Source: a virus. Taken from it: DNA of 64,000 nucleotides. The notes under the pieces were generated by a model. It did no database searches. It was not told where the DNA came from and worked only from the letters and a program-made list of their open reading frames with translations. Positions 27,596 through 61,596 of this stretch are shown in pieces (position 1 is the stretch's first letter; each line of letters opens with the position of its first letter). The stretch lies in IMG/VR virus record IMGVR_UViG_3300047160_003799. One strand, written 5' to 3'. The translations under genes and the position numbers were made by a program.

Positions 27596-27613
27596 CTCGT
27601 ATCTACATTTCTA

Positions 27614-38731: not shown

Positions 38732-39377
38732 TCAGGTTCTCGAAGTGGAAACTACGTTCTTTCGATGGTGGTATCCGCCCGAGAGCCCGATCTCGTATTC
38801 CACGAAGGATAGCCTGCTTGAACTCGTGCGCTTGATCGTGTGGAGACTTATCTCCCCACTTTGCGCGGATAAGAGCTTGGTTGTTTAGCTGCGAGTGGAA
38901 GCCAGAAGTACCAGCTCCACGCTCTAGACCACCGAAGCTCATATCAGGCTTACGAGTATCCACATTGAAAAGAGTAGCACCTTGCGTCGGCTCATGGTGA
39001 GCGATGAACTCTTGGGCATAATGTGGGCCAGCGATGTGCGCAAGCTCGAACATCTTGTTCAAGAAGTCAGGATGTGGTGTCCCATCGGCTCTTTTGTTGA
39101 CGATAAGGAAGCTCGCCTCCCGAGAAGGACGGATCTGCCCTGTGTCGGGATCCGTTTCCTGCCCGAAGCCTTCGATACGAACGTAACCAAGACCTTCACC
39201 ACGGACAGCACGAAGAAGCTTGTTGGTATTCGCCACGTTCACGAACCGTGGAACGGTGTGCGCCGTGAGACGGTCAGTCTGCCGCCAGGCTGAGATGATG
39301 ACGAACTCATCGTTCTTGAAATGTTTCTCAATGCGGCTGATAGAGACTTCAAGAAGATCCATGCTGCTATTCCTCAT
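38688..39377 (-). CDS. hypothetical protein (229 aa)
   Basis: ORF track. Confidence 0.5.
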   Translation of the reverse strand: MRNSSMDLLEVSISRIEKHFKNDEFVIISAWRQTDRLTAHTVPRFVNVANTNKLLRAVRGEGLGYVRIEGFGQETDPDTGQIRPSREASFLIVNKRADGTPHPDFLNKMFELAHIAGPHYAQEFIAHHEPTQGATLFNVDTRKPDMSFGGLERGAGTSGFHSQLNNQALIRAKWGDKSPHDQAHEFKQAILRGIRDRALGRIPPSKERSFHFENLIAQIIAGRDPRSIT

Positions 39378-39741
39378 CGGGAACTGTGTCGCCTGCGGCA
39401 GTGATGTAGAAGATTGTGTTTCCCTCTTGAACTAGCTTATTGTCGAAGTAGTGAAAGGCGAAGAAGTAATCCTTAGCTCCTAGCTTGTGTAGTTCCGCTA
39501 GGACGCTGCCATCTAGTGTAGTGATGTGTGGGTTTTCAAGCACATTGCGGGAGGTTAGTGGATTTTTGGCACGCCCATAGCCGATGCCGTTCATGAGCTT
39601 GGCGCAGAACCGTTTGGTCTGAGCATTGGTGGCTTTGTGCTCTATCTGTCTCTGAAAGTGCAGTATGGCCTGACGAAGCTTCATCTCTTCAAGGTTCGCT
39701 TCCAGTAGCTCTCTGAGCTTGAGGTTGACGTGTTCTCTCAT
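39367..39741 (-). CDS. leader-A family protein (MREHVNLKLRELLEA...), 124 aa
   Basis: ORF track 39367..39759; motif starts at second Met (39741), which abuts the upstream gene stop. Confidence 0.5.
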   Translation of the reverse strand: MREHVNLKLRELLEANLEEMKLRQAILHFQRQIEHKATNAQTKRFCAKLMNGIGYGRAKNPLTSRNVLENPHITTLDGSVLAELHKLGAKDYFFAFHYFDNKLVQEGNTIFYITAAGDTVPDEE

Positions 39742-40706
39742 GGCTGCTCCGCGAACCACCAGTCAATGTTTCCTGCATTCATCTTGAGATAGACATCTTG
39801 ATCTACCTCGTAGACGGACAATGTAAACAATCGCCCGCCTCTCGTGACCACGACTGAATGCCTTGTTGCAGGATCTACTCCAATACGTACTGAACCAGTG
39901 AAGAGCGGAGCATGTCCCTTTACGGCCTCTGGTTCTATATCCATCTCTATCTCGTGCATACGGAATGGATCTAGAACAACGGCCAGGAAGGTCTCGCCCT
40001 CATGAGGCTCTGGTGGCGTGCCTCTGTCACCACGAGTCGCGGAGTGTGCAAGAGGATTCTCCACAAACTCTTTGACCGCTGCGATGAGAGCGCGAGCTAG
40101 GTGCGTCGTCTCGTCAAGCTCTTCGTGCTTCTGGAACTGCCACTTCTTCTGGAGCTTGTCGTATCCGATTCCAGCGAGCTGCTGAGGACTTGCTTCGTTA
40201 AGCAAATGGAGCTTTGAGTGAGCTTCCTCGATGGCGTGCTTCATGCCCTGCCAACGATGACGAGGAGAGCCAAGATACAGCTCCCACCTTCCAAGGCCAT
40301 TTCCATGACGCAAGGAGTAGGAGTAGTCAGTAGGTTCCACCTCTTCGGATTCAGCGTGCTTAGCTCCATAGAGCGTCAGCTCAACCAAGCCACCAGTAGC
40401 GAAGTTCTCTCCGTTCTCCAGCACGTAAGGCGAGCCCTTGGCTAGTGAGATCTGGACCTGGTTGAACCTTCCACCGAAAGCACCCCTGATAATGAAGCGT
40501 GAGTCATGGTACTGGCCGATGGCTATCGGCTCCTTATCCGACTGATGGATGACATGCCCGCCCATCACGGCAACAGCACTATCAAAGAAATCGTTGGCGT
40601 CCTCGTAATGCGGCTTCTCAGGTACGCCTTGAGGTGGCTCAACTGCTTCTCTGATAGAGATAGAGCCTTTGATGATGCGAGCTACGGTTTCATCCAGTTC
40701 TCGCAT
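39738..40706 (-). CDS. leader-B family protein (MRELDETVARIIKGSISIREAV...), 322 aa
   Basis: ORF track. Confidence 0.5.
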   Translation of the reverse strand: MRELDETVARIIKGSISIREAVEPPQGVPEKPHYEDANDFFDSAVAVMGGHVIHQSDKEPIAIGQYHDSRFIIRGAFGGRFNQVQISLAKGSPYVLENGENFATGGLVELTLYGAKHAESEEVEPTDYSYSLRHGNGLGRWELYLGSPRHRWQGMKHAIEEAHSKLHLLNEASPQQLAGIGYDKLQKKWQFQKHEELDETTHLARALIAAVKEFVENPLAHSATRGDRGTPPEPHEGETFLAVVLDPFRMHEIEMDIEPEAVKGHAPLFTGSVRIGVDPATRHSVVVTRGGRLFTLSVYEVDQDVYLKMNAGNIDWWFAEQP

Positions 40707-41067
40707 AGAGCTTCGTCACCTTCGAGTCGTTGTGCCCATCGTAGCGGGCTTCTCGGATCTCTATCTGGTGCCCACGGGCCGTTCGGAAGAGTTCGATTAC
40801 GCCCTCAGCGTAGACGTTACCATTCGTCCTCACAGGAATAGAGACCCTGTAGAGGGAGATCCTAGCTGGATCTGGTGACTCGAAGAGATTGAAGGAGAAG
40901 CGATCAAGAAGACTAGCCGCTTCTGTAAGACGCGCAATCGGGCCGATGAGCGCAGCACGCAGTTCAAGCTGCATGGCGTGGATCATCTCGTTCTCGAAGG
41001 GTGTTACCTGCACCCCTGCAACTTCAAGTAGCTGGCGAGACAAAGCTCTCAGGTTCTCCTGGCGCAT
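40690..41067 (-). CDS. hypothetical protein (125 aa) with degenerate leader-A-like N-terminus (MRQENLRALSRQLLEVAG)
   Basis: ORF track. Confidence 0.4.
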   Translation of the reverse strand: MRQENLRALSRQLLEVAGVQVTPFENEMIHAMQLELRAALIGPIARLTEAASLLDRFSFNLFESPDPARISLYRVSIPVRTNGNVYAEGVIELFRTARGHQIEIREARYDGHNDSKVTKLYARTG

Positions 41068-41136
41068 GGATGGACCTCACTAGAAACGAAGACGCCCGAA
41101 GCCACAGTATATGTAGCTTCGGGCGCCAGTTAGAAG

Positions 41137-41589
41137 TCACTCTTCTTTTGAGAAGTAGCCGTATACGCAGCGCGTTCCGCCACGAGTCGGATCGTGAGTG
41201 TCGTGCGGCTTGCCGTCGATGACGGCTACGATGTGCTTGCTCACGCTCACGATGAGCCGCCCCTTGGGCAGCTCGCTCTCCTTGAGGTGGACCTTGCAGC
41301 CTGAGCCGATGAACATCGTCGGGGTCCACTTCCAGCCCCATGCATCGAGAAGCCTGTGGATCGTCGCCTTGTAGACGCCAGAGCGGGCACTTGACTTCCC
41401 GCGACGGCGCTTACTGCGGCGCTCCTTCTTGGCGCACTCGTTGATGGCGTCGTAGACCTCTTGGTAAGGCTTCTCGCTGGCGATTGCGATTGCGCGACAC
41501 ACGCAATCGCCAGTCGCGCCGCTGTAGCCAGCCTTCCGACGCCCTCCGTCGTTGTAGACGAAGTTCTTCGTCATGAAGTTCTCTACCAC
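41137..41589 (-). CDS. hypothetical protein (150 aa), conserved Cys/His (possible peptidase-like)
   Basis: ORF track. Confidence 0.5.
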   Translation of the reverse strand: MVENFMTKNFVYNDGGRRKAGYSGATGDCVCRAIAIASEKPYQEVYDAINECAKKERRSKRRRGKSSARSGVYKATIHRLLDAWGWKWTPTMFIGSGCKVHLKESELPKGRLIVSVSKHIVAVIDGKPHDTHDPTRGGTRCVYGYFSKEE

Positions 41590-42050
41590 GGGCGCTCCGC
41601 AGCCTCCAGGGCCAGCTTCTCTCGCTTGGAGATCTTCTTGGCCTTGACGGCTTGCTGCACGTCGCGGTTGATCGTCGCCTTCATCGCAGCCTTGGCGGGC
41701 TTGGCGTGGCCCTTGAGGCTCGCGGCCATGATCCCTTCCATGAGCCCCAACGTCTTGCCCACGGTAGCGATCTCCTCCTTCGTCGGGGGAGCCTTGGCCT
41801 CGTCCTCCTCGACATTGCGGGGCTTCTTGACGGGCTTGATCTCAGGCTCGCCCAGCGTGCCCTCCAGCTCGAAGTTGTCGATGACCCGCTCGTAGTAGTT
41901 CACCTTCTTGCGTGCTGCCAAGAAGCGTGTCATGCTCCTGGCGAGCTTGTCTTCGGCTTTCTCCAGCTTGGACTTCGCCTGCACGAGCTTGGACTCGTAG
42001 TCCTTGAGCGCAAGCTTTCTGCGCTTAGCCATTGCACACCTCATTGTCAA
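41583..42050 (-). CDS. coiled-coil protein (155 aa)
   Basis: ORF track. Confidence 0.5.
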   Translation of the reverse strand: MTMRCAMAKRRKLALKDYESKLVQAKSKLEKAEDKLARSMTRFLAARKKVNYYERVIDNFELEGTLGEPEIKPVKKPRNVEEDEAKAPPTKEEIATVGKTLGLMEGIMAASLKGHAKPAKAAMKATINRDVQQAVKAKKISKREKLALEAAERPW

Positions 42051-42215
42051 AGAACCAGGTTGCTAGGAGACGATCTCCTCACATCACAACCTAGACACAT
42101 TATATCATGTGCTCGATAATACAAGATAGAGACAGAGATTTTCTAAGTGGCTAGTGTACAAAGAGAAAGGACAGTGTAGGAGTTCTACACTGTCCTCAAT
42201 CGTAACTGTCCTGTT

Positions 42216-42638
42216 TTACCGATTCCTACGAAGTGCTTCCTCGATCTCCGCTATGTTGCCTCGCTCGATGTAGAACCATTGATCCTTCATAGGATCTTTC
42301 GAGCCAAGGTAGAAAGCCATGTCCTTGGTCTCATACTCGAAGATACAGAGAATAGCCTCATTGCCATCGGCATCACACGACTTGAATCCTGAGAAGCGCT
42401 GAACCTTCGCGTCTTCATCGTTGGTTCGAGCCTTGTGGTAAGCTCGCTTCAAGGCGTCATCGATGTCGAGCTTCGGAGTAGAAGGACGTGGCTTCTTCGG
42501 AGGTGTAGCATCGTCGTCATCAAGCTTTTGTGGATCTGCCTTTTTCTCTGGTGGCTTGGTCTGATCCTGCGAGCCAGCGAAAAGCCCAGAGGCAAGAACC
42601 AGTGACAGAGCCCAACAGAAGACCAACGACTTCCTCAT
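42216..42638 (-). CDS. secreted protein (signal peptide; 140 aa)
   Basis: ORF track; MRKSLVFCWALSLVLASGLFAGS. Confidence 0.5.
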   Translation of the reverse strand: MRKSLVFCWALSLVLASGLFAGSQDQTKPPEKKADPQKLDDDDATPPKKPRPSTPKLDIDDALKRAYHKARTNDEDAKVQRFSGFKSCDADGNEAILCIFEYETKDMAFYLGSKDPMKDQWFYIERGNIAEIEEALRRNR

Positions 42639-42868
42639 AGTCTTTTCAGCCTCGCACTCAAGTAGTCCATAGCCTTGTAGTCATCGGGGTTGAGCCGTTC
42701 GTTATTGACGTAGCGCTTAACCACGGACTTTCGAGGATACCAAGTCTGCTTGGAGCCGTCAGGAAAAATCAATGTGATGCGCATCCAGTAGATATTGAAC
42801 CGAGCGCAGGTCTTCCGAAACGCCCAATAGAGTTCGTACCGAAGCTTGAACAGCTTGTACCGAAGCAT
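42635..42868 (-). CDS. hypothetical basic protein (77 aa from Met 42868)
   Basis: ORF 42635..42940 trimmed to internal Met that abuts the upstream stop. Confidence 0.4.
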   Translation of the reverse strand: MLRYKLFKLRYELYWAFRKTCARFNIYWMRITLIFPDGSKQTWYPRKSVVKRYVNNERLNPDDYKAMDYLSARLKRL

Positions 42869-43614: not shown

Positions 43615-43652
43615 GCTCCTGCCTCCAATTCGGCATTTGCTTCTTCTGTTCC

Positions 43653-44084
43653 CTATACCAGAGCCGAAGGCGGTAGAAGGTCAAAATCTACTAGGTAGCC
43701 TCGAATTGTGGTTCGACCTTCTTTGATAGCTTTCCAAAGCCTATGCCTTCCGTCAATTACGTCTGGCCCCTTGTGGTCGATACCGACGAGTATCGGATAG
43801 TCGAGAAGGGATTCCTGCGCACGAAGAGTGAAGGCAGGCGTGCCATCTCGTTCGTCAGAGAGTTTACCTTTCGTGAAGGTGTGTGCGACAAGGTCGATTG
43901 GCAGCTCTTGCAGAGGATAGTTCTCTTGAGCCCAATCGAACAGCGCAGAGACGTGGTACTTCTTGCCGTCGTCGTGCCTATATGAAGACCGCTGGAAACG
44001 CTCAGTGCCGACAAGCTCGGACACGATGCGTTCGGGATCGTAGCCCCTTAGCGCGCCATTGATAGCTGCTCTGACGGGGTTCAT
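43653..44084 (-). CDS. ParB-like nuclease domain protein
   Basis: ILVGIDHKGPDVIDGRHRLWKAIKEG matches ParB/Srx DGxHR signature; start trimmed to MNPVRAA abutting the upstream gene. Confidence 0.55.
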   Translation of the reverse strand: MNPVRAAINGALRGYDPERIVSELVGTERFQRSSYRHDDGKKYHVSALFDWAQENYPLQELPIDLVAHTFTKGKLSDERDGTPAFTLRAQESLLDYPILVGIDHKGPDVIDGRHRLWKAIKEGRTTIRGYLVDFDLLPPSALV

Positions 44085-45133: not shown

Positions 45134-45992
45134 AGACCACTATCTGCTGTCTCGGAGAGAAGAGAGCAATGACTTGCCACATCTTCTGAGCCGTGAATGT
45201 GAAGCGGTTGCGATGCTTCTGGTTGATCCTGATAGGCGTGATGATCTCGTTCTCACCGACCTGCTCTGGCGTTGAACCTGGAACTGCTGGGTTGACACGT
45301 GAGCGCCCGAGCGAATCGAAGTTGACACCGTAGATGTCGTAGAGCCCTTGGTCAGTAACAGGGCCAGAAACGCTTGTCGTGAACTGCTGGTGCAAGTACG
45401 CTTGGAATTCTGGATCGTTCACGTCCGCTGGCTTACCCTTCCAGTTGAACGGCGGATATTCTGGTGACGGGTATGGTGGTGGAAGGTTCCTATCGACAGG
45501 CGAGAACGGGTAGTCGGAGAACTCGTTGACGTAGCCTGCTGGCGTTCTCTTTGGCTTGCAGCACGGTGGCTTCGGATAGTCGATTGAAACGACGCACATC
45601 CCGTAGCCGTTCACCGTAGGAATGCTGTTCGGTGTGATGTACCAGAAAAGCTGCTGCCATGGCGAATGAAAACGTACGCTGCCTACAGGAATCGTGAACG
45701 ACTGGACAGGGATGGTCTTTGAGAAAGGGTCAGGCCAATTAGGAATGGCTGTGTCAAGCTCGACGTAAGGCACGTGCTGCTTATCTAGCAGATACTTGAC
45801 CTTATCCATCTCATTCGCATAGACAGCTCTGAACGCCCCATCTAGATCATGGGTCTGCTTGAGCTGGAGCTGCTGGTCGTACTCTTGAACCTGGTTAGTG
45901 ATCGCGAGTTTCTGGCTGTTCCAGGCTTGGTAGGCAGCTTCGAGATTATCTTCGGCAGAGGGCATCGATGATCTCCCTTGGGCTCTCACCAA
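45114..45992 (-). CDS. hypothetical protein (292 aa)
   Basis: ORF track. Confidence 0.5.
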   Translation of the reverse strand: MVRAQGRSSMPSAEDNLEAAYQAWNSQKLAITNQVQEYDQQLQLKQTHDLDGAFRAVYANEMDKVKYLLDKQHVPYVELDTAIPNWPDPFSKTIPVQSFTIPVGSVRFHSPWQQLFWYITPNSIPTVNGYGMCVVSIDYPKPPCCKPKRTPAGYVNEFSDYPFSPVDRNLPPPYPSPEYPPFNWKGKPADVNDPEFQAYLHQQFTTSVSGPVTDQGLYDIYGVNFDSLGRSRVNPAVPGSTPEQVGENEIITPIRINQKHRNRFTFTAQKMWQVIALFSPRQQIVVYDTRCS

Positions 45993-47244
45993 AGATGATC
46001 TTCGCTACGACTGACGAAAGGGACTCACCAAGATCCTTCGGATAGAACCACTTCATTGTTTCGTGACGAAGCTGCTTGTCGTGTCGCCAACGCACTTGAG
46101 CTGCATAAACATACTGATCTGGGTTTCTGACGCCCATACGCGAGAGCCCACCCTTGAGTAGATCTACAAGCCGCTCTGCGACGACTCTGCGCTTCGCAAA
46201 CATCGACCACTTACCATCGCCTGGTACGTTAGGCGTGACTTCTTCGATCTTCCTTCCAGCCGATGAGTGCTTGAGGAGACCGTCAACAAAGGCAGCGTCG
46301 GGACCACCACCAAGGGCGGCGCCTACTCCATGTGTGCTCATAATCTGCGTGCCAAGCGGTCGAAGACCAGACTTCTCTCTGAGCTGCTTGACGTTTTTGA
46401 TCGTGATCCTATAGATAGGTGGCCTATCGTCGCCCTCGACTTCGTGCTGGCGCCTCTGGCTAAAGTTCTCGCACCAACTGTTAGGGCACTTGATGAGCGA
46501 TGGATCGTTCATCTTCTCGTCGGCTGTATTACGAGTACGACGAGCTAGAGGATGGTCACACTTTGGGCAACGGATGTCATCGTCCTGCGCTTCGTCCATA
46601 GCTTCCTGCTTCCCGATGTAGTCAGCTAGCCAGCGAACCTGTTCAAGCGTATGCTGCCCTTTACTCTTGTTAGCTAGATCCTTCTCGACGGCATCCATAT
46701 CACCGTCGTGACTAGCGTATAGGCAAAACACTTCTGCAAAATCTTCTTGCGGATGAGCCTGAGCGTACTTACTGACGAAGCTCGTATCGTTCGGTTTGAC
46801 GCCTGGCTTGCGCTTGTAAACCTTGTGGTAGTCTCCAAACAAGGAGAGGAACTCAGGGCTGCGCCGTACTTCATCAGAGATCTTCTGCGTAAGAAACTTG
46901 TGCCCTAGCTCGTGCATGACCAGGTTGAGCAAGCCACCTTTGACTGAACCTGGAAAGTTCTTATCGCGCTTGTCTAGGTAGACAGGCTGGCCTTGATCTG
47001 ATGCCTCACTGCCACCGCGAGTCGGTTCAATGCGGTAGTCTAGCTCAATACCGAGCCGTTGGAGCTTGGCATCAGCTTCGGCTTTCAAACGCTCCAGCTC
47101 TCTAGGCATCAAGGCGGCTCCTGTTGCAACCACCGACGACCGCAGAGAGCACACCATCGGTTCGGTATGAGATCCTCGTAGTGCTTCTGCTTCGGCTTCT
47201 CTGTTAGAAACGAGCGGACATACATCTCGTGACCTTTGGGGCAA
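45946..47244 (-). CDS. SprT/Wss1-like or DUF4157-like HExxH metallopeptidase-domain protein with Zn-ribbon
   Basis: LLNLVMHELGHKFL plus CPKCDHPLARR...CPNSWC. Confidence 0.45.
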   Translation of the reverse strand: MPQRSRDVCPLVSNREAEAEALRGSHTEPMVCSLRSSVVATGAALMPRELERLKAEADAKLQRLGIELDYRIEPTRGGSEASDQGQPVYLDKRDKNFPGSVKGGLLNLVMHELGHKFLTQKISDEVRRSPEFLSLFGDYHKVYKRKPGVKPNDTSFVSKYAQAHPQEDFAEVFCLYASHDGDMDAVEKDLANKSKGQHTLEQVRWLADYIGKQEAMDEAQDDDIRCPKCDHPLARRTRNTADEKMNDPSLIKCPNSWCENFSQRRQHEVEGDDRPPIYRITIKNVKQLREKSGLRPLGTQIMSTHGVGAALGGGPDAAFVDGLLKHSSAGRKIEEVTPNVPGDGKWSMFAKRRVVAERLVDLLKGGLSRMGVRNPDQYVYAAQVRWRHDKQLRHETMKWFYPKDLGESLSSVVAKIIFGESPREIIDALCRR

Positions 47245-47336: not shown

Positions 47337-47816
47337 TCATGGCCGTGGTTGTCGTAGCTGTACTAGTCCAGCAGGAGGCGGTGGAATAGAGTGAGCAATG
47401 ATCTCAAGCGTCTGGTGGAATGGAGCGTGTGAGATGTCGAATACGGTGTGGTCGCGCCATAGGCGGAACGGAAAATTGTTGCCTGTCGCGTACTCTATAG
47501 TCCACACAGAATTGGCATAGTGAAACGTGATCTCGCCAACAACCGAACCTCCAGGGGGCGGAAGATAGGATGGTCTTGTCGTTGTAAGAAGTCTGACGAA
47601 GTCAAGGATCCAGTCAAGTTGAATGCTTCTGTAAGGGTTACGGTAAGGCAAAACAGGATTGTCATACTGGATCCTAGCCGCTATCCGAGCGATTCGCATC
47701 GGATGCGTTGGATCTTGGAGCCAGTGCTTGAGGGCTTGCTCCGTTCGATAGCTGATAGCTTCTAGGAGCGTAAGCCTGACGTTCTCACTCATCGAAGCTC
47801 CTAGTAGGAGTACCAA
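47337..47816 (-). CDS. hypothetical protein (159 aa)
   Basis: ORF track. Confidence 0.5.
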   Translation of the reverse strand: MVLLLGASMSENVRLTLLEAISYRTEQALKHWLQDPTHPMRIARIAARIQYDNPVLPYRNPYRSIQLDWILDFVRLLTTTRPSYLPPPGGSVVGEITFHYANSVWTIEYATGNNFPFRLWRDHTVFDISHAPFHQTLEIIAHSIPPPPAGLVQLRQPRP

Positions 47817-48703
47817 ACAGATTCGTCTGGTGGGGCGCCGTCTGCCTGCACTTCAACGGCGAACTCCCCATAAAGTGAACGAAAGATACGGATATCGGTA
47901 CGAAGACCCGTCAAGGTAATGTGATTGCCCCAGACCTGGTGCCAGATACCTGCTGGCTTAGTTTCGTCATCGTGGAAGAAGCCGAAGACTTCGTGAAGAA
48001 GATCATGCAAGGTGTCGAATGCAGCTTCTTCATTACTTGACGGCGCATGTTTCATCCATACGAGGATACCAGTAGCGAGCTTGCCGAAGAAGCCTGGATC
48101 CACTGGATCAAATCTCGGTTGAGAAGGGATCTTGACCTTCGCCTTGATCTCTGTGATCGGCTTGGCAAGCGGGCGTGCCCAGCGCTTGACCTTATCCTGC
48201 TCACCTACGACAGAATGGCTGTATACGAGGATGTAGTTAGATGATTCTGGAATGAAGTTGAAGGTGATCTCCGTATCACTGTTCGGAACGGCTGGAGTCA
48301 GCTTGACGCGAATGGAGAACTTTGCGCCAATAGCCTTCTCACTCGTTACCTTGAAACCATTGGCGTTTGCGATACCGTTGATTTCTTGGAGAACAGCGTT
48401 TTCATCCATCCCTTTCGTCTTCTCAGCAATGGCACGAAGCTTATCTTTGAGATCATTCTCGAATCTCAGATCGCGCGCAGCCTCTTCTTGTGGCTTGTGC
48501 TGTTCCTTTTCTCTTTCTTTCGCTTTGTCTGCCATCCACTGAGCCCAGAGCGCCTTGGCACAGCCAGGACAAATGCCGTGCGTTGTCGGTTCTCCCTTTG
48601 TCGTACCACCAGGGAGATCCAGATCAACTTTGCACCAGGCACAGATCTTCTTGGCCTCTAGCAAGAGCTTGAGCTTGAGCCCTACGTGTTCGCGCTCCCG
48701 CAT
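47801..48703 (-). CDS. leader-A family protein with Zn knuckle (MREREHVGLKLKLLLEAKKICAWC...CPGC)
   Basis: ORF track. Confidence 0.55.
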   Translation of the reverse strand: MREREHVGLKLKLLLEAKKICAWCKVDLDLPGGTTKGEPTTHGICPGCAKALWAQWMADKAKEREKEQHKPQEEAARDLRFENDLKDKLRAIAEKTKGMDENAVLQEINGIANANGFKVTSEKAIGAKFSIRVKLTPAVPNSDTEITFNFIPESSNYILVYSHSVVGEQDKVKRWARPLAKPITEIKAKVKIPSQPRFDPVDPGFFGKLATGILVWMKHAPSSNEEAAFDTLHDLLHEVFGFFHDDETKPAGIWHQVWGNHITLTGLRTDIRIFRSLYGEFAVEVQADGAPPDESVWYSY

Positions 48704-48743
48704 GGCTAATCCTTCCTACGGAATAGAGACTTGCTCATAGCGA

Positions 48744-49667
48744 TCATCTCTTCTTCCAGTTGAGCTTCTGGCCGCTGAGATGCTCCACGAGCGCGACGAC
48801 ATCCTCTTCTGGTATTCCAGTGATCTTGGCTACCCGTTCCACAGCCATGCGAATACCGCGCTCGTTCCAGCCCTCGCGTCCAGCTATGATCTTGAAGTGC
48901 CCGTAGACATCGAGTGCTTTCATAGCGTCGTAACGTTGTGAAGCTGGAAGAGGAGCTGGAGCGGGCGAGGGCGTTTGCTTTTTCTTCTTCTTGTCATCAC
49001 CATTGCCTAGATCAGTCTTGACGGACTCCAACAGTTGCTTGAGCTTGAGGCCGACGTACTCGCGGCTTTCATCTTGCTCTTTAGGTGAGATGTCTTTCAT
49101 GTGACTTACTCTCGGTTGACCATAGCGAAGAAGCCCAAACAGTTGTGTGAGCTTGTGCTGTGGATTCGTTGGCTGTTTGCCTACTATCGGCCTAACAAGA
49201 CCTGTGCTACCGAAGTCAGGCTCAAACGGATTCGAGAAGAACCACTGAACCAGCTTGAGCCATTCGCTCTTATCGCTTGGCTTGGTCACAGAGTTCATGA
49301 TCTTCGACATACCAGAAGCAAGCTGGAACTCGATGCCATGAGCCTGTGCAATGTCGGATGGGTGCATTCCATTGAGGATGTCCTTAGCGATACGAGCTAG
49401 CTTAGGAATAGGGAGCGCACGGGCTTGATCCTCGATCTCCGCTTTAGGCTCTCTGATTGTTCTTCGAGTAAGCGCGCTACTTTTTGCTTTCGTTGCTCGA
49501 TCATAGAGCATCTTGACGAACTTCGGTGATACACCTTCCTTAGCGGCGATCTCCTCGACAGTCTCGCCAGCATGAATGCGACTCATGACCTCATCTCTAT
49601 CGAGTGGCTTTTTCTTTTCCTCCGCTTCGAGCAGCTCCATGAGCTTGAGGTAGACGCTTTCTTTCAT
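48744..49667 (-). CDS. leader-A family protein with HTH-like segment and a second internal leader-A copy (res ~201-215)
   Basis: ORF track; MKESVYLKLMELLEA at N-terminus and SREYVGLKLKQLLESV internally (DNA ~49022-49067). Confidence 0.55.
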   Translation of the reverse strand: MKESVYLKLMELLEAEEKKKPLDRDEVMSRIHAGETVEEIAAKEGVSPKFVKMLYDRATKAKSSALTRRTIREPKAEIEDQARALPIPKLARIAKDILNGMHPSDIAQAHGIEFQLASGMSKIMNSVTKPSDKSEWLKLVQWFFSNPFEPDFGSTGLVRPIVGKQPTNPQHKLTQLFGLLRYGQPRVSHMKDISPKEQDESREYVGLKLKQLLESVKTDLGNGDDKKKKKQTPSPAPAPLPASQRYDAMKALDVYGHFKIIAGREGWNERGIRMAVERVAKITGIPEEDVVALVEHLSGQKLNWKKR

Positions 49668-51127
49668 GCCTTCCTCCAGTAGCTCAAGTAGTAAACGTCC
49701 TGGTCAGTCGGATTCTCTAGTGTTTCAATCGATGCATGTAGCTCAAGCTGCTTCGTCGCATGACCGCCAGATATAGCGTGGTAGATGTGGACCTTGACCT
49801 TGATCCCTTCCGTCGTCGTGTAATGTTCGAGGAAAAGACTAGTGTGATTGATCTTGGAGTGGAATCTGTACTCCTGTAGCTTGTACTTTGTACTGGTAAC
49901 GAGATCCTCGAACTTCTGGCAGAAGTCGGTGTAGGTCAAGCCTTGCGTCTTGCAAAGGTTCTCGGCGTCATCAATGAGATCTTGTTCATTTGGCTTCAAG
50001 TTCCCAGGCGGCGTGACTAGGTTCTCAGCAAGGTGCTCCTTCAAACTCTTGTGGTAAGCATCGGAGAACCAGGATGGTCCCTTCGCCTCCGCTTGCTTTA
50101 CTGCGGATGAGATAGCTGGCTTCGCTACGAGGATCGGGCGATGGTGCTGCGATGCTATCGCTGTGACCTTGTTCGCCTGCTCGTGGTCAACCCAACGAAG
50201 GACGAGGACAGCATCAGGTATCCGCTCTCCAAGAGTGTTTACAATCTTCGTTGGTGAATCAGACCTTGGGAAGTGCTTGACCTCGAATGAAGACTTGATC
50301 CACTGAGGAATGTCTCTCTCCAAGCCGCCAACGACCATGACGAAAGGCTTGTGCGCATGAGGCCATCCCGTTAGTCCAGTCGATGGAGCCTGCTGAGAAA
50401 TGGCCTTCACTGGCCTCACCCAAGGAGCAGGCTTGAATGGCTCTGGTTCTACGACTACTGTTTGCCCACTAGGCTCATGCGGCGCAACGACTGGCTTGTC
50501 AAAGCTATCCGCTAGATCCATTGCCTTATCGACTTCCTTGGTATGGAAGATCATCCAAGACATGAGAGCGCCGTAATGGATACCGTACTGCTCGCTCACC
50601 TCTTTCATCTTGGCCCAGAGCTGCTCTTTGATTTCCTTTTCAGTTTGCGGTGCGAGCTTATGTGCTCTATACAGCACATCAGCGAACAGCTCTATCCACT
50701 CTTCTTGGGTGAGATGGTCGCCGTAGTAGCTCCAATCTATCGTGCCGTTCTTGAGACCAGCGATGAGTTCCTCCTCAGATGGAAGCGGAGCCCTGAGTGG
50801 TACCTTAGCGGCGTTCGCGATTTCGTCCTCTATCTTTTTCAGGCGTCCCTTAGCGTTCATGAGCTTGGCGCCGTGGTAATCGACCTTCGCTTGCAGCGTC
50901 GATGGATTCTCCTGGGAGAGCGTTATCATCGCAGTGAGATCAGAGGGACGGATGCCAGTCATATGCGCATAGGTGATAGGCGAAACCTTCGCGTAGCCGA
51001 ACTTCTTCGATACGCCGTGCATCGCTGCCAGGTAGGCAAGGTGTTTGATGATCTCCTGCTCTTGTGGATCAGGAGGTTTCGTAGCCTCTAGCAAGGCTCT
51101 GAGCTTGAGTCCTACGAACTCTTTCAT
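49664..51127 (-). CDS. leader-A family protein (487 aa)
   Basis: ORF track; MKEFVGLKLRALLEA. Confidence 0.55.
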   Translation of the reverse strand: MKEFVGLKLRALLEATKPPDPQEQEIIKHLAYLAAMHGVSKKFGYAKVSPITYAHMTGIRPSDLTAMITLSQENPSTLQAKVDYHGAKLMNAKGRLKKIEDEIANAAKVPLRAPLPSEEELIAGLKNGTIDWSYYGDHLTQEEWIELFADVLYRAHKLAPQTEKEIKEQLWAKMKEVSEQYGIHYGALMSWMIFHTKEVDKAMDLADSFDKPVVAPHEPSGQTVVVEPEPFKPAPWVRPVKAISQQAPSTGLTGWPHAHKPFVMVVGGLERDIPQWIKSSFEVKHFPRSDSPTKIVNTLGERIPDAVLVLRWVDHEQANKVTAIASQHHRPILVAKPAISSAVKQAEAKGPSWFSDAYHKSLKEHLAENLVTPPGNLKPNEQDLIDDAENLCKTQGLTYTDFCQKFEDLVTSTKYKLQEYRFHSKINHTSLFLEHYTTTEGIKVKVHIYHAISGGHATKQLELHASIETLENPTDQDVYYLSYWRKA

Positions 51128-51954
51128 AGGATCTGGCCCTCCCGACGAGAGTGCATGTAGTAGGAGGGATTTGTTTGTAGACGACCACCGAAGGCTCCGT
51201 CATGAAGGTTCCCAACCAAGATGTAAGCTTTGGCGAGAGGGAACCAGGACAAGACCAAGATGACCGAACGAGAGTAAATCACTTCAATAGGATCGCTCGT
51301 AAGCATGGGATCAACTGTCTGCGCAAAAATGCCTTGATGTGAAAATGGTTCTGAGAAGTCCCAGGCTTGAGTAACCTCGTGCCACAAGTCAATAGGAACA
51401 TCAGCAAAGGAACGATGGGTGTGCAAGTGCAAGTTGCGCTGTACCCACTGCTCTATCTGATGGCAGAGCTTCTGTTCGCCTGGCGTATTGGTGAAGTTGA
51501 CGGTTTCAGTCTGCTGGCGTTCATGCTGAACGTAACGATAACCTATCTCTTGATCGCCACGATTCACAGGATCGCCGTAGAGCACTGGCTTGCCTTGCTC
51601 GAAGGTCATGGAGTCCAATGCTAGGCGACCCTCCACACGCGCTAGCTGAATGATGCTGCCGTGCCGTCCAGGGCTTTCTGGACTGAGGAGCGGATCCTGC
51701 TGCGCAGCTCTTTCATTACTTACGGCTACTGTCACGAGAATAGTTCGCCCCCTAAGATCACGGCGATGGAGTGCCCGCCCTCGTCCGAAGCCCAAGCTTT
51801 CTGCCAGAATGTGGAGATAACGGAAAACTTCCCCCTGGTGTTCTTGCTTGGCCCAGAGCTGGAGCTTCTTCCTGAGTTCTTCCTCTTCTGGAGTAAGCTT
51901 TGGAGCATCCGCTTCTAGCAGTTGCCTGAGCTTGAGTCCTACGAACTCTTTCAT
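51124..51954 (-). CDS. leader-A family protein (276 aa from MKEFVGLKLRQLLEA)
   Basis: ORF 51124..51972 trimmed to Met preceding the motif. Confidence 0.55.
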   Translation of the reverse strand: MKEFVGLKLRQLLEADAPKLTPEEEELRKKLQLWAKQEHQGEVFRYLHILAESLGFGRGRALHRRDLRGRTILVTVAVSNERAAQQDPLLSPESPGRHGSIIQLARVEGRLALDSMTFEQGKPVLYGDPVNRGDQEIGYRYVQHERQQTETVNFTNTPGEQKLCHQIEQWVQRNLHLHTHRSFADVPIDLWHEVTQAWDFSEPFSHQGIFAQTVDPMLTSDPIEVIYSRSVILVLSWFPLAKAYILVGNLHDGAFGGRLQTNPSYYMHSRREGQIL

Positions 51955-52808
51955 ACTTCCACCCTGAACCAAGGGCTAAAAGCAGCGATGCAGCACCATA
52001 GCTCTTGCCCTGTGTAGGTCTCGTGGCCTGTGAAGGGGTAGTGAGTCCATAGGAGATGAACGTCAGGGTGCGGTTTCTCTGCCTCAAAGTCACGAGTTGG
52101 ACTACCAACAGAATGTGGCTCAATCGCATAATCGCCAACAAGCCACGCTGACGGTCCCTTGTGCCACTTGTCTTCGATTTCTATAGCGCCAGGAAACAAG
52201 TGAAAGTCGCCAGCGACTTTCCGATGCTCGTACTTATAGTGCTTGAATGGATAGCCGATCATCTGGAGGAAGTACTGGAACGCGACCTTGGCAGTACTGC
52301 CATGAACGCGGATGATGGCGGTCGCTAGAGCTTTTGCTTGTATAGTGTCTCTGTTGCGCGATGAGATGTCGTGTATGGTGTCTCCAGTCTTAACAAGCTC
52401 GTCACGCTGAGCCTTCCAAGCGTCATACGCCTCATCAATCGACTGGTTCCTCTTGGCTACGATGGCTGCGTCACGGAGCTTGACGATATCGTTGAGGTAG
52501 TTGGAAGCGGTCAACAGATCGTTCTCATCCCAATCGGGGTATTGCTCACGAACGAATGGGATACCGACCATCTTGAAGTTGTAGATCGTCTCTGGGTAGA
52601 ACGTGAGCTTCTTGCCCGCTGCAAGCTGGCGAAGCCCGAAGGCGATGTCAGTAAGCTTCTCCTTGACCCAGCGAGGATCACGGCTATAGCGCCTGGCTTC
52701 CTGCTTAGAGATCTCGCGCTCGATCTTCTGGATGAAGCGAGCGATGTCGTCGTAGGGCTTGAGCCCATCGAGCAGGCGCTTGAGCTTGAGTCCTACGTGC
52801 TCAATCAT
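51951..52808 (-). CDS. leader-A family protein (285 aa from MIEHVGLKLKRLLDG)
   Basis: ORF 51951..52874 trimmed to Met 52808, which abuts the upstream stop. Confidence 0.55.
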   Translation of the reverse strand: MIEHVGLKLKRLLDGLKPYDDIARFIQKIEREISKQEARRYSRDPRWVKEKLTDIAFGLRQLAAGKKLTFYPETIYNFKMVGIPFVREQYPDWDENDLLTASNYLNDIVKLRDAAIVAKRNQSIDEAYDAWKAQRDELVKTGDTIHDISSRNRDTIQAKALATAIIRVHGSTAKVAFQYFLQMIGYPFKHYKYEHRKVAGDFHLFPGAIEIEDKWHKGPSAWLVGDYAIEPHSVGSPTRDFEAEKPHPDVHLLWTHYPFTGHETYTGQELWCCIAAFSPWFRVEV

Positions 52809-53100
52809 CTTGCACCCCCGCTGGCCGTCCATGAACGACGTTTGCAGCCCATCCTCGCTTCTCGGCTGCAGCAATGGCTCGTTGTATAACCTCTTTGAGC
52901 TTGACGCTGTTCCTGTCCATCAATGGAAACCAGCCAACGCCTCCGAAGATCCCCAAAGTAGGATCGTCCACAGGGAATGGCTCCCACTGGAGCATCGTGC
53001 CTCCACCAGATGGATACCAAACGTGCAGATTGATTGGCTTCCCAGGCGTAGGGTTAGCTTCAATGAGCTGTTTGACCTTCTCTCCAACGCACTCTCTCAT
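52801..53100 (-). CDS. small protein with degenerate leader-A (MRECVGEKVKQLIEA), 99 aa
   Basis: ORF track. Confidence 0.45.
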   Translation of the reverse strand: MRECVGEKVKQLIEANPTPGKPINLHVWYPSGGGTMLQWEPFPVDDPTLGIFGGVGWFPLMDRNSVKLKEVIQRAIAAAEKRGWAANVVHGRPAGVQDD

Positions 53101-55066: not shown

Positions 55067-55073
55067 CTATGAC

Positions 55074-55307: not shown

Positions 55308-55438
55308 AGAAACCTCCCTTGCCAGAAGAAGGAGACGCCCTGGACCGACCGTATTTCTACGGCCAGTCCAGAGCGCGGTCCCAAGGTGAATTGGTACTAA
55401 GTCAGGCTGTTTGTCAAGCCTAATCTTCTGAAAAGGTC

Positions 55439-58279: not shown

Positions 58280-58331
58280 TCATCAGTAAAAGACTTAGCG
58301 CTCTATCTGCTCAAAGCGCCTGGATTCATTT

Positions 58332-58352
58332 AGCGCCCAAAGGGCGCTTTTC
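58332..58352 (+). terminator. hairpin AGCGCCC-AAA-GGGCGCT followed by TTTTCTG (terminator-like in plus orientation) inside a 208-bp intergenic gap
   Basis: Read directly; gap 58280..58487 also contains an AT-rich stretch (58380-58470) likely carrying the promoter for the 946-aa gene. Confidence 0.35.
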
Positions 58353-58487
58353 TGCTGGTTCCCTAGCACATGCAACTCACACGTGCAACTTCTCATCAAA
58401 CCAAGACAGAATCACGTAAGTTTTGCGGTCTTTCGTAAGAAACTAGATCTAACACTTAGAGCATTAAGCACAGGCTCGCTATGCTCG

Positions 58488-58724
58488 CTACTTCTCTATG
58501 ACTGGATCCTTGAGTGATAGACTCTTCCTCGCTGCTTGGATCGACTTCCTCAGATCTTCCTCTGTATGCTCATCCATTCCGATAGCTAGGTGCCTTGCTC
58601 CATCTGGCATATCTGCTAGCAACTCACCTATGGTACGTGCTGACTTCGTGTGATCGAAGGTGAGCACGAGTATTCCATCGTGTTGAGTTACTGTGAGTCC
58701 GAGCTTAGACAAGTCGCCTAGCAT
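58488..58724 (-). CDS. hypothetical protein (78 aa from internal Met; ORF track 58488..58814)
   Basis: Trimmed so that it abuts rather than overlaps 58729..59181. Confidence 0.4.
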   Translation of the reverse strand: MLGDLSKLGLTVTQHDGILVLTFDHTKSARTIGELLADMPDGARHLAIGMDEHTEEDLRKSIQAARKSLSLKDPVIEK

Positions 58725-58728
58725 ATGG

Positions 58729-59181
58729 TTACATTCCCTTTCTGAGATATCTGAGCTTGTTGGCTTGGTGTTGTGGTGTACTCGTCTTTGAGAAGAATGC
58801 GAACTTGATGTCATCTGGTACTGATACCGTGTGTATCCTCGTTGGATGATAGTATGGGCTGGATGGATCCTGTGCTTGAGTCTGGAGGTTCATCTCATGG
58901 TATTTGAGCCATGCGGCTGCTGTCTCTGGCTCGTGCATAGCTCCACCCATTGTCCTAGCGGTATTGATGGATGCGGCTCCTAGCCTTAGATAGCGCTTGC
59001 CGAATACGGCTGATGGTTCGCCGTGAGAGCGGATAGCATTGGCTACCCACTTAGATACGGCGCCTGTGTCACCCTTCTGACCTTCACGCTGTAGTCTGCG
59101 CTGCTCTGCATCTGATTCGAGCAATGCGTTGATTACATCGTGAGGAGAGGTGCCTTTGATAATGGCATGAATCGGGTCCAT
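58729..59181 (-). CDS. leader-B family protein (MDPIHAIIKGTSPHDVINALL...), 150 aa
   Basis: ORF track. Confidence 0.5.
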   Translation of the reverse strand: MDPIHAIIKGTSPHDVINALLESDAEQRRLQREGQKGDTGAVSKWVANAIRSHGEPSAVFGKRYLRLGAASINTARTMGGAMHEPETAAAWLKYHEMNLQTQAQDPSSPYYHPTRIHTVSVPDDIKFAFFSKTSTPQHQANKLRYLRKGM

Positions 59182-59183
59182 AG

Positions 59184-60422
59184 CTATTCCTCAGCTATTA
59201 CATTCTTGCCGAAATGAGGGATGAGTGGCTTGCCCATGCAGGTCTTGTGAACGTATATGGGGCGCCCGAACTTCTTGCTTAGCACTTCGAGATGTACTAG
59301 TTGGGACATCATCCCCATGTTGCCACATACCTTGCAGGTACGCTTGCCCTCTGCTTCAAGTAGCTCTTTCAGCTTGATACGTGTGTATTCCATGGTGTGC
59401 TCCTTGAGCATGGCTTGAGCGCAGGCCCATGCGGATTGCCACGTGCGGTGCTTGTGGTTGCACGGCGTATCGCTCTTGCTCAGTCCTGCCCATCCTGAGC
59501 CAGAGTAGTGCCTGACGTGATCCTTGGCCTGTTCCCACGCTTTCTTATCTTTGTCCTCTGACTCGTGTTGAGCTGGAGGCGGTGTAGGTAGCTCGTAGTT
59601 GTATGCGAGGGCACGGACCCAATAGTATGGACCAACGATATCATCAGTCCTATCTGGTTCCTCGAACTCGTTCTCTACATCACGAGGGCGGTGAGGATTG
59701 TATGGATGCTTGTAGATAACTTGTACCATGTGTCGCTGTCGAGCTGTATCCCTGTAAACGATTGCGGTAGCGCTGCTGATGTTGGGATACTTACGCTGTC
59801 TGCGATTCTGTGGGAACTTGATAGAGAAGGCACCGATGCGCAGGCCATGGTCGCGTGGAGCACGCTCGTAGTGCTGTAGTAGCTCTACGAAGCTGTTGAC
59901 ACGTAGCCATTCAGCAATGGAGCTGCGCCCTTGTGGGCCTGGACCCACCTGCGCCATACGTTTCATGGCAGCATCGATGCGTGAAAGCATCTCTTGCTCA
60001 GCAGGCGTTAGCTCTGGCTGCTCACGAGCCTCTTGCACAGGGCGATGCAAGCGTTCCCATGTGGTCCAGTGGTTCGTGCTTACCTGCAGTTCGTATGGTG
60101 CGAGTGCTATGGCATGGCCTGTCGGTGTGCGGAAGAGCAGAACACGACGATCTGGGAAAGGTCGTTCTTCTTGTCGTAGATCTACTTGTGTGAGATACTG
60201 CCAATCCTTTGGAACTTTCCAGATACGGTCTTGAAAGTGTGGACCGTAGAAAGCGTTGTCCACAGCCCAATGGTATAGGCGCTCAGCCATGAGCGGCCCT
60301 TGAGCCCTCTCTTTCGAGAAGGCTTGCAGCCTGGTGATGAGCAGCGTATCCTCTGGCGTTAGCTCTGGCATCTTTCGAGCTTCGAGGAGCTGCCTCAGCT
60401 TGAGGCCAACGTACTCAATCAT
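59184..60422 (-). CDS. leader-A family protein (412 aa from MIEYVGLKLRQLLEA) with second leader-A-like copy (MEYTRIKLKELLEAEG) before a C-terminal Zn-ribbon module
   Basis: ORF 59184..60455 trimmed to Met 60422 (ATGA-coupled to upstream gene); internal copy at ~59349-59393. Confidence 0.55.
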   Translation of the reverse strand: MIEYVGLKLRQLLEARKMPELTPEDTLLITRLQAFSKERAQGPLMAERLYHWAVDNAFYGPHFQDRIWKVPKDWQYLTQVDLRQEERPFPDRRVLLFRTPTGHAIALAPYELQVSTNHWTTWERLHRPVQEAREQPELTPAEQEMLSRIDAAMKRMAQVGPGPQGRSSIAEWLRVNSFVELLQHYERAPRDHGLRIGAFSIKFPQNRRQRKYPNISSATAIVYRDTARQRHMVQVIYKHPYNPHRPRDVENEFEEPDRTDDIVGPYYWVRALAYNYELPTPPPAQHESEDKDKKAWEQAKDHVRHYSGSGWAGLSKSDTPCNHKHRTWQSAWACAQAMLKEHTMEYTRIKLKELLEAEGKRTCKVCGNMGMMSQLVHLEVLSKKFGRPIYVHKTCMGKPLIPHFGKNVIAEE

Positions 60423-60814
60423 GGCTGTCCACCCGCCGTATTGCGCCAATACCAATGCTCAGTGTTCGTCCACATTTCATTGGCGCTGGTATCAGCTAGC
60501 AAACGAATGTAGTGGTCGTTGCCTTGAGGCCAGTATGCAATAGCTACTGCATGATAGGCCGTATCTGGGTTGTGGAAGGCCACACGCTCGTTGAACTCAG
60601 CCTTGGTGTGGAGTGGATCGAATGGAACATCTGTGTTATCTATAGGATCGAAGTCACCAAGAACTTCTTCATGGTGTATCCACATATGTGTGGTCAGTTC
60701 TGTGAGATTGCGAAAACGGCCTTGGATAACTTGATATAGAGCTTTGACGACTTGGCCTGCAAAGCCAGTCGCTTCGAGTATTTGCTTGAGCTTTAGTGAT
60801 ACGTGCTCACGCAT
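60419..60814 (-). CDS. leader-A family protein (MREHVSLKLKQILEA), 131 aa
   Basis: ORF track. Confidence 0.5.
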   Translation of the reverse strand: MREHVSLKLKQILEATGFAGQVVKALYQVIQGRFRNLTELTTHMWIHHEEVLGDFDPIDNTDVPFDPLHTKAEFNERVAFHNPDTAYHAVAIAYWPQGNDHYIRLLADTSANEMWTNTEHWYWRNTAGGQP

Positions 60815-61165
60815 TCATTCGCCTTGGCTGTGTGGATCCTGATTCACGTAGCAAGAGATGCAGGTGTGATACTGGCCCTCTGGGATATCTCTGTTGCAGC
60901 CTGGGCACTTGTAAGCTGGCATGTGTCCGTTCGGCTGTGGGAACAGAGGTGGGCGAACAGGCAACCCTGGGATCGGAACCATTGGAACGAGTGGTGGAAT
61001 AAGTTGCATGATTGGCATTGGCGGATTGATTAGAGGCATGATGCCGTGACCTACCTCAAGCCTAGCGATGCTCAGCTCCGCATTTGCAAGGCGCGCTTCG
61101 AGCAGCGTAATACGGTCTATCAATACTTTCATAGTTGATACCAATGCCAATTCCGTCTCGTTCAT
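60815..61165 (-). CDS. coiled-coil / Pro-rich protein with C-terminal Zn-ribbon (CPGC...CISC)
   Basis: ORF 60815..61189 trimmed to Met 61165. Confidence 0.45.
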   Translation of the reverse strand: MNETELALVSTMKVLIDRITLLEARLANAELSIARLEVGHGIMPLINPPMPIMQLIPPLVPMVPIPGLPVRPPLFPQPNGHMPAYKCPGCNRDIPEGQYHTCISCYVNQDPHSQGE

Positions 61166-61596
61166 GTGACATCTTCCCTTCGTGTCCACGAGTATACGGT
61201 GTAACCGCCTTCTGGCAGTGCCCCTGGGTCATCTGCTTCTATGTAGTCAAACAAATAGACCCAGCCGTATTCCTCCCGTCGTGCATGACGTGTAAGTATG
61301 AACGTGGCGTCGGGGGATAGATCATCTATCCGCCAGACAATGCGTGGGCGCAGTGAGTTGATGTAGCTATCTCTGTTGAACAGAGGAACAGAGAGAGCTT
61401 CATTGTGTGCGAAACCATACTCGCGGCTAGTGAGTATGTTCCCCAGCTCGTCATGTTCCCAGCCCTGCGGCTTCTCTATCAGGGCCTTGATCCTGTTCTT
61501 TAGCTGCTGCTCCCATTTGTTCGCAGCTTGATGTTTTGGCCTACGCCCAGCTTCGAGCAATGCTCTGAGCTTGAGGTTGACGAACTCGATTGACAC
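61162..61596 (-). CDS. leader-A family protein (MSIEFVNLKLRALLEA), 144 aa
   Basis: ORF track. Confidence 0.5.
   Translation of the reverse strand: MSIEFVNLKLRALLEAGRRPKHQAANKWEQQLKNRIKALIEKPQGWEHDELGNILTSREYGFAHNEALSVPLFNRDSYINSLRPRIVWRIDDLSPDATFILTRHARREEYGWVYLFDYIEADDPGALPEGGYTVYSWTRREDVT

Follow-up and report, generated by a model that had tools for sequence, protein, structure and literature searches.

The subject of this work is leader A, a peptide of about 15 residues found at the start of many otherwise dissimilar proteins encoded in a 64,000-nucleotide (nt) stretch of viral DNA (IMG/VR record IMGVR_UViG_3300047160_003799), hereafter called the window, which belongs to an uncultured soil phage. 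Leader A is real, lineage-specific and undescribed, because profile, DNA-pattern, tblastn and literature searches recovered it only from this phage and from a single relative. Probably it works as a self-contained recognition tag at the N-terminus, with a linker connecting it to cargo that can be exchanged. Additionally, and by analogy with the capsid-targeting sequence (CTS) of phage T4, we tentatively propose that it may be a two-part propeptide, in which a docking half is followed by L-L-E|A, where a head protease specific for Glu would cut.

Copies, gene starts and distribution of leader A

A six-frame regular-expression scan of both strands of the window, using the motif x-E-x-V-x-L-K-L-[KR]-x-L-L-E-A, returned 12 copies, which all lie within 39741–61593 on the minus strand; the rest of the 64 kb has none (Table 1). 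Ten of the 12 copies are located at residue 1–3 of their protein and the remaining two are internal, in frame and intact; two degenerate N-terminal copies (41067 and 47792) come in addition to these. The nine N-terminal sequences described in the first-pass annotation are all present at the minus-strand starts that it gave (both in the open reading frame listing and in the six-frame scan), and its two weaker copies, at 53100 and 41067, were found in the same listing; the two internal copies (49067–49023 and 59396–59352) and the degenerate copy at 47792 had escaped it. 

Each leader start is preceded, 5–12 nt upstream, by a G-rich Shine-Dalgarno-like motif, which falls inside the 3′ end of the preceding (and usually overlapping) gene, and independent gene calls on public contigs give identical proteins with the same Met start, including the same 144-amino-acid (aa) call for the 61596 product. 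This upstream motif and these matching calls both support the leader Met as the gene start.

Table 1. Positions of leader A and leader B copies in the window
Feature	Position	Strand	Context
Leader A MREHVNLKLRELLEA	39697..39741	-	start of gene 39367-39741 (124 aa)
Leader A, degenerate MRQENLRALSRQLLEV	41020..41067	-	start of gene 40690-41067 (125 aa)
Leader A, degenerate MSENVRLTLLEAIS	47751..47792	-	start of gene 47337-47792
Leader A with two extra residues MREREHVGLKLKLLLEA	48653..48703	-	start of gene 47801-48703 (300 aa)
Leader A, internal, in frame, intact SREYVGLKLKQLLES	49023..49067	-	aa 201-215 of 307-aa protein
Leader A MKESVYLKLMELLEA	49623..49667	-	start of gene 48744-49667 (307 aa, HTH-like segments)
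Leader A MKEFVGLKLRALLEA	51083..51127	-	start of gene 49664-51127 (487 aa)
Leader A MKEFVGLKLRQLLEA	51910..51954	-	start of gene 51124-51954 (276 aa)
Leader A variant, L-L-D-G end MIEHVGLKLKRLLDG	52764..52808	-	start of gene 51951-52808 (285 aa)
Leader A, weaker MRECVGEKVKQLIEA	53056..53100	-	start of gene 52801-53100 (99 aa)
Leader A, internal, in frame, intact TMEYTRIKLKELLEA	59352..59396	-	aa 343-357 of 412-aa protein, directly before C-terminal Zn-knuckle module
Leader A MIEYVGLKLRQLLEA	60378..60422	-	start of gene 59184-60422 (412 aa, multi-module)
Leader A MREHVSLKLKQILEA	60770..60814	-	start of gene 60419-60814 (131 aa)
Leader A, M/V-SIEFVNLKLRALLEA, GTG start	61549..61596	-	start of gene 61162-61596 (144 aa)
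Leader B, N-terminal (seven proteins)	53366, 55066, 59181, 61983, 40706, 58246, about 44100	-	including Nudix-thymidylate kinase fusion and 946-aa protein
Leader B, C-terminal (two proteins)	38691-38745, 45949-46020	-	Peptidase_Mx protein and 229-aa protein

The leader is confined to a narrow lineage. A leader profile run with HMMER against all 1.84 billion representative proteins (the first-pass annotation had recommended a hidden Markov model search of phage proteomes) gave 13 matches, 12 of which belong to this phage or to one relative, the 13th being a spurious repeat protein aligned to columns outside the leader. The leader alignment, run as a word-indexed search on 5.8 billion proteins, gave no match, and neither did tblastn of the leader against 50,697 GenBank phage records. 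Degenerate DNA patterns, searched in IMG/VR, the JGI metagenomes and 185,579 GTDB genomes, returned only contigs of the same phage or chance motifs inside unrelated bacterial proteins, and the leader peptide strings were absent from the literature searched. It had been stated beforehand that the motif was not recognised from any described system, and this still holds after these searches, in which no family, phage record or publication matched. The 10-nt core CTCAAGCTCA occurs 9 times, versus 0.35 expected, which far exceeds chance.

Full-length searches with two of the leader proteins found exactly one relative, about 50% identical (Logan run SRR32120253), represented by contigs L003 (11.4 kb) and L057 (5.7 kb), which are syntenic with the window at 43–55 kb and 59–64 kb; public contigs reach at most 7.6 kb for this phage and 11.4 kb for the relative. 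Leader A is N-terminal on nine proteins of the relative, versus ten in the window. The 48703 protein, in which the leader is followed by an N-terminal Zn ribbon, has an ortholog (r6791, on L003) that retains the leader; orthologs were also found for the 60814 protein (q2688, on L057), the 51954 protein (P0002, 55% identical), the 53100 protein (r2115, with leader MREHITEKLKTLLLR) and the 47792 protein (on L003, with degenerate leader MSENVRLKLFEALS). When both phages are pooled (including r3148), 19 of 22 copies close with [LIM]-[LI]-E and then A, S or H, so that the P3 residue is Leu, Ile or Met; the exceptions are the 52808 protein (LLD-G), r2115 (LLLR) and r2762 (a one-residue insertion before the Glu, giving LLL-E-D). 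As a sequence pattern, this end matches a site of the T4 gp21 type, namely an aliphatic residue, any residue and Glu, followed by a small residue.

Peptide selection and exchangeable cargo

The codons of 21 leader copies, pooled from both phages, were analysed. V5, L12, L13, E14 and A15 are each written with two to six synonymous codons, in roughly genomic proportions, and orthologous leaders share 25.5 of 39 nt, versus 25.6 for non-orthologous ones. Since DNA divergence is the same in both cases, synonymous sites are saturated and the likeness of the leaders is held by selection; recent duplication or gene conversion was considered as its cause and rejected. Despite this saturation, 8 of the 15 positions are near-invariant over unrelated cargo. 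Selection thus acts mainly on the peptide, in agreement with the earlier argument, built on synonymous variation, that the leader is not a simple DNA repeat.

The codons of L7-K8-L9 (nt 19–27 of the leader, for example 39723–39715 and 51936–51928, and also in L003 and L057) behave differently. Although CTC has a genomic share of 0.35, it encodes 15 of 17 L7 residues and 18 of 20 L9 residues (P = 9e-6 and 5e-7, respectively), and K8 is AAG in all 21. A CTCAAGCTC(A) core is therefore constrained at the level of nucleotides or codons, and it often lengthens into the direct repeat CTCAAG-CTCAAG. The window also contains five tRNA genes (384–1472 on the minus strand and 27613–27687 on the plus strand; ARAGORN calls four of them), among them a tRNA-Lys(CTT) for AAG, a codon that accounts for 85% of Lys residues and is the one found in every leader.

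Upstream of the leader starts, the DNA is not conserved beyond the Shine-Dalgarno-like motif, the 70 nt concerned being 3′ ends of overlapping genes. Over the leader start region RNAalifold predicts 0 pairs, and Rfam (at the gathering threshold) reports only tRNAs, all outside the leader region, so that no structured RNA element was found in the 5′ coding region. No PeSL-like cassette, with a conserved promoter and stem-loop upstream of each ORFan, was found at these starts; promoter-like sites are rarer than in shuffles, and scans for sigma-70 promoters and terminators gave no timing information for the leader genes.

The bodies of the leader proteins show a very different picture. With the leader trimmed, no relation was detected among about 14 module families (at least 12 of them unrelated) by BLASTP and shallow profile-profile comparison. 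The exception is a ‘P-E-L-T-P-E-E’ segment of 25–45 residues, which follows the leader in the 51954 protein, in the 60422 protein (twice) and in their relatives q4759 and r5929 (BLASTP E = 2.7e-8 with the leader and 0.02 without it; hhalign probability 37–64%). The earlier claim that the downstream parts are unrelated is consequently retained for about 14 module families, at the sensitivity of these methods, and fails for this subset. No Pfam family is common to more than one leader protein (full proteins and N-terminal 80 aa, E<=10), no PHROGs family is common to them, and a PDB profile search with the leader gave only matches with E>=0.2; the motif is, then, not the N-terminus of a common Pfam domain, which had been named as the finding that would overturn its interpretation. 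A resemblance of the leader to helix 1 of Xre-type helix-turn-helix (HTH) domains was suspected and rejected, as no HTH_3-type match appears even at E<=10. The cargo itself gives weak HTH and Zn-ribbon hints, and DUF4379 is found in one relative protein. The leader proteins are 99–487 aa long and most have an isoelectric point (pI) of 5.6–7.2, with a pI >9 in 4 of 20.

In the eight residues after the leader, Pro rises to 12.5% (versus 6.2%; P=0.003) and charged residues to 36% (versus 24%), with fewer hydrophobic ones (P <= 0.003), a composition that fits a flexible linker. AlphaFold2 models of the 131-aa and 276-aa leader proteins have mean-confidence (pLDDT) values of 43 and 30, and at this low confidence they put the leader in a helix-loop-helix. 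By inspection, no Sec or Tat signal peptide (about 10 or more hydrophobic residues behind a basic n-region) was recognised in the leader, whose charged residues (E3, K8, K/R10 and E14) break the peptide every 2–5 positions. At the other end of the proteins, W/Y/R/G/E-rich tails (such as …YWRKA, …WWFAEQP and …REGQIL) are present on many minus-strand products at 39–62 kb. A shared aromatic-rich C-terminal domain was considered for them and dropped, these ends being largely the Shine-Dalgarno sequence of the overlapping next gene (GGAGG or TGGAGG) read in frame.

In the comparison with the relative, leader cargo evolves faster than its neighbours, orthologs being 34–60% identical for leader-A proteins and 46–88% for neighbouring genes, and between conserved anchors the gene content of the two phages differs. 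Several proteins of the relative are fusions that join modules encoded by separate genes in the window: r3816 combines the N-terminal part of the 49667 protein with a piece of the 51127 protein; r4757 (L003 4757–5932) consists of 118 aa, a leader and a 51954-like module; q3080 (L057 3080–4423) of a leader, a new module, a 61596-like and an r2115-like module and the Zn knuckle of the 60422 protein; and q4759 (L057 4759–5715) of a leader, a module like the N-terminal part of the 60422 protein and two 61596-like modules. The 61596-like modules, present in up to three copies in these fusions, each open with E-A-R-R-R-P-x-H-Q. Since modules are found without an intact leader, the leader is not part of their fold.

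Seven internal junctions, read by eye, lack the front half of the leader; E-A is kept in all seven and an aliphatic P3 residue in six (SLDEA, VIEEA, PVTEA, SILEA, PVQEA and TLLEA among the strings, with QEEA as the exception). The pattern [LIVM]-x-E-A occurs 50 times, about half of them being the leader copies themselves, versus 16.4 +/- 3.9 times in shuffles. Strings of the V-x-E-A and L-x-E-A type are also located, in both phages, at the boundaries between the Nudix and kinase domains and between the kinase and C-terminal domains of a 567-aa fusion enzyme.

Leader B and the surrounding genes

The same gene block, and only this block, contains a second leader, leader B, with the pattern h-x-x-I-I-x-G-x-S-P-x-x-I-I-x-x-L-L-E (for example MDPIHAIIKGTSPHDVINALLE and LSEVLAAIIAGTSPRSIIEQ), which can stand at either end of a protein (Table 1). 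At N-termini it closes with [LIV]-x-E; where it is C-terminal on a peptidase and its ortholog, the residues before it are L-G-E|S in one phage and L-Q-E|A in the other. The peptidase in question (45946–47244, minus strand) has a Peptidase_Mx domain (HELGH; Pfam E=3.8e-10) that is missing in the ortholog of the relative (L003 8349–9023), so that a domain-sized insertion or deletion has taken place within a conserved gene. Peptidase_Mx was considered as the leader-processing enzyme and rejected, its catalytic part being absent from a relative that keeps its leaders.

The left half of the window (2–30 kb, plus strand) has a G+C fraction of 0.57–0.61, versus 0.51–0.55 on the right. It encodes a ribonucleotide reductase, an RNA ligase, a DNA methyltransferase, a Lar-like protein and a RecT-like protein (with closest phage homologs in genomes of 140–440 kb, including Acidobacteria phage Tunturi_5), together with auxiliary genes for two ferrochelatase-like proteins, a cysteine dioxygenase-like protein, a 2OG-Fe(II) oxygenase and endonucleases, including endonuclease V.

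Three further features lie in or beside the leader block. Near-perfect hairpins of 19, 16 and 13 bp (55376–55335, 41127–41091 and 42197–42167, minus strand) occupy the few intergenic gaps of the block and are probably operon-end terminators. A gene at 34838–38242 (minus strand) encodes a 1134-aa protein without leader, in which three long (PTPSPP)n linkers are combined with a right-handed beta-helix (a borderline match to Pfam Beta_helix); from its sequence it looks like a depolymerase or fibre. Another, at 61987–62280 (minus strand), encodes a predicted lipoprotein of 97 aa that has the signal LALALVAPGC, two stretches of 8–9 His and many Cys-x-x-Cys/His pairs, and that may bind metal.

Possible roles of the leader

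Among the readings considered, the likeliest, by analogy, is that leader A applies the capsid-targeting-sequence principle in a variant form, at a larger scale and with fusions that resemble polyproteins. The internal proteins of T4 are diverse and have only a 10–19 residue CTS in common, with targeting in its N-terminal part and processing at residues 8 and 10; Asp at P1 stops cleavage and not targeting (PMC9026906, PMC3012670, PMC8442874). T4 Alt has propeptides at both ends (PMC9026906), a likeness to leader B, and the head proteases of T4, phiKZ and SPN3US all cut after Glu (PMC9026906, PMC10052503). In a corresponding mechanism for leader A, the front half, E-x-V-G-L-K-L-[KR], would dock the new protein on a common phage partner (by the T4 analogy, the scaffolding core of the prohead), and a Glu-specific protease of morphogenesis, of the same type as T4 gp21 or phiKZ gp175, would cut the back half, L-L-E|A, after Glu14. 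This cleavage would free the cargo inside the capsid, from which it would enter the next host with the DNA. The cargo, made of unrelated, fast-evolving and recombining modules (HTH, Zn-ribbon, Zn-knuckle and many ORFans), would be as expected of host-takeover or anti-defence effectors. Docking, cleavage and the capsid as destination are what we infer; the existence of the tag, its selection as a peptide, its separability from the cargo, the flexible linker behind it and its restriction to this lineage are what we observe.

The likeness to the CTS of IPI, IPII, IPIII and Alt (which gp21 removes) involves a short N-terminal peptide as the sole common part of unrelated, fast-diversifying proteins, a targeting front followed by an aliphatic-x-Glu end (here a putative docking half and a putative cleavage site), and genes dispersed over variable regions that are not structural (PMC9026906, PMC3012670, PMC8442874). 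The differences are an unrelated, uncultured lineage, more carriers (at least 10 within 22 kb), multi-module fusions with remnant E-A junctions, and the co-occurrence of leader B, which can be C-terminal. The resemblance to capsid-targeting sequences noted in the first-pass annotation is strengthened by the unrelated, shuffled and fast-evolving cargo, by the linker and by the h-x-E-A strings at the junctions, and not by similarity to the T4 CTS; the ending ‘...GKLEA’ quoted there for IPIII disagrees with the published CTS, MKTYQEFIAE (PMC8442874). Head-internal proteins of phiKZ, 201phi2-1 and SPN3US, many in number and including large ones, are similarly cut (by gp175/gp245) after Glu at a three-residue motif, often at several sites, and the cargo that they eject into the host is paralogous and evolves fast (PMC10052503, PMC9026906). 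Nevertheless, those propeptides are long (20–254 aa) and have no shared conserved tag, and the phiKZ and SPN3US motif, A/S/G-x-E, has a small P3 residue (PMC10052503), whereas that of leader A is aliphatic.

Several observations weigh against the capsid-directed propeptide. No head, tail or protease family was recognised in the 64-kb window, and neither there nor in the 17 kb of the relative (L003 plus L057) was a major capsid protein, portal, scaffold or prohead protease found, so that the partner and the enzyme required by the capsid model are unseen in 64 kb plus 17 kb; the prohead protease and major capsid protein that the first-pass annotation proposed to look for were, then, not found in the window. 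The region had also been described as a phage late region, a description that is not supported, given that it has no recognisable structural genes and that the long operons of the leader genes also encode a Nudix-thymidylate kinase fusion, an RNase H-like exonuclease and the Peptidase_Mx metallopeptidase. T4, for its part, also has its internal-protein genes away from the cluster of head genes. The classic internal proteins of T4 are small and basic, and the cargo here is mostly neutral or acidic and reaches 487 aa, although T4 Alt shows that this feature is not obligatory. Direct comparison of MKTYQEFIAE with leader A (M-[KR]-E-x-V-G-L-K-L-[KR]-x-L-L-E-A) gives no alignment. Additionally, three internal copies are fully intact, which is not required of a strictly N-terminal signal; the junction ‘E-A-[RK]’ could be the structured start of the downstream module; the structural models (pLDDT 30–43) are too poor to show the leader detached from the body; and the metabolic enzyme with leader B (Nudix-thymidylate kinase) would be an odd protein to package.

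Another reading is a docking peptide, cleaved or not, for a non-capsid hub in the infected cell (a scaffold or chaperone, a phage-built compartment, the host RNA polymerase or a protease adaptor), which we regard as somewhat unlikely. The evidence for autonomy and peptide selection fits it equally, the genes around the leaders are metabolic or accessory and not structural, several cargo modules are of nucleic-acid-binding types (HTH, Zn ribbon, DUF4379), and leader B stands on an enzyme and may be N- or C-terminal. Encapsulation peptides of bacterial microcompartments are likewise N- or C-terminal on enzymes; the cargo peptides of microcompartments and encapsulins, which are cellular and uncleaved, consist of a short amphipathic helix at either terminus, connected by a flexible linker to unrelated enzymes. 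Here, in contrast, the system is that of a phage, no shell gene is seen and there is no sequence similarity to these peptides. Moreover, no candidate receptor was identified, the Peptidase_Mx domain is missing from the leader-bearing relative and is thus not a conserved partner, and a hub alone leaves unaccounted for both the [LIV]-x-E end of the two leader types and the survival of h-x-E-A at fusion junctions where the rest of the leader has decayed. The segment common to the 51954, 60422, q4759 and r5929 proteins, together with the helix-loop-helix of the low-confidence models and with K<->R changes at position 10 that always pass through AAG/AGG/AGA (suggesting point-mutation continuity), could instead indicate that a single old and highly diverged paralogous family has kept its N-terminal helix as the leader, a structural or oligomerisation element inherited by descent and with no sorting role. 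This is quite improbable in view of the at least 12 downstream module families without detectable mutual relation, the occurrence of the same modules in fusion proteins whether or not they have an intact leader, the Pro/charge-rich linker, and the near-invariance of 8 of 15 positions with synonymous sites saturated.

A primary role of the nucleic acid, with the peptide as a by-product (an mRNA 5′ coding or DNA element, a site for a translational regulator, or a PeSL-like recombination hot spot), would explain a CTC-AAG-CTC core fixed beyond codon usage, the excess of CTCAAGCTCA and the different gene content around the leaders of the two phages. PeSL cassettes, found in the hyperplastic regions of T4-type phages, do put a short conserved sequence at the 5′ border of many ORFans, with gene content variable in close relatives, and such conserved flanks drive ORFan shuffling (PMC2839356). 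However, a PeSL is an intergenic promoter plus stem-loop, whereas leader A is coding, with every copy in frame, and is selected as a peptide; beyond the 10–12 nt core it is the amino acids that are conserved, with synonymous sites varying freely, and neither upstream conservation nor RNA pairing nor an Rfam match was found in the region, which makes this reading very improbable. Unlikely as well, though less so than either of the last two, is a two-signal sorting system of the lineage's own, evolved independently of the T4 CTS. In it, leaders A and B (N- or C-terminal, with an aliphatic-x-Glu end) would address at least 20 proteins (the metallopeptidase, the Nudix-thymidylate kinase fusion and other enzymes among them) to a phage-built destination that is perhaps not the capsid, with polyprotein-like processing at E-A, and the 12-nt core CTCAAGCTCAAG would double as a crossover point through which new cargo gains the tag.

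If leader A does serve in sorting or capsid loading, it would mark, from sequence alone, the proteins that an uncultured soil phage delivers or co-localises, and the tagged ORFans would be prime candidates for anti-defence and host-takeover effectors that are otherwise unrecognisable. Fusions in which the tag has decayed and the E-A junctions are kept would constitute a natural experiment on the role of each half of the signal. In that case, the T4 solution of a short tag and a Glu-specific cut would have arisen, or would persist, at a far greater scale in a lineage unrelated to T4, and phage particles could be loaded with foreign proteins through a second, orthogonal tag.

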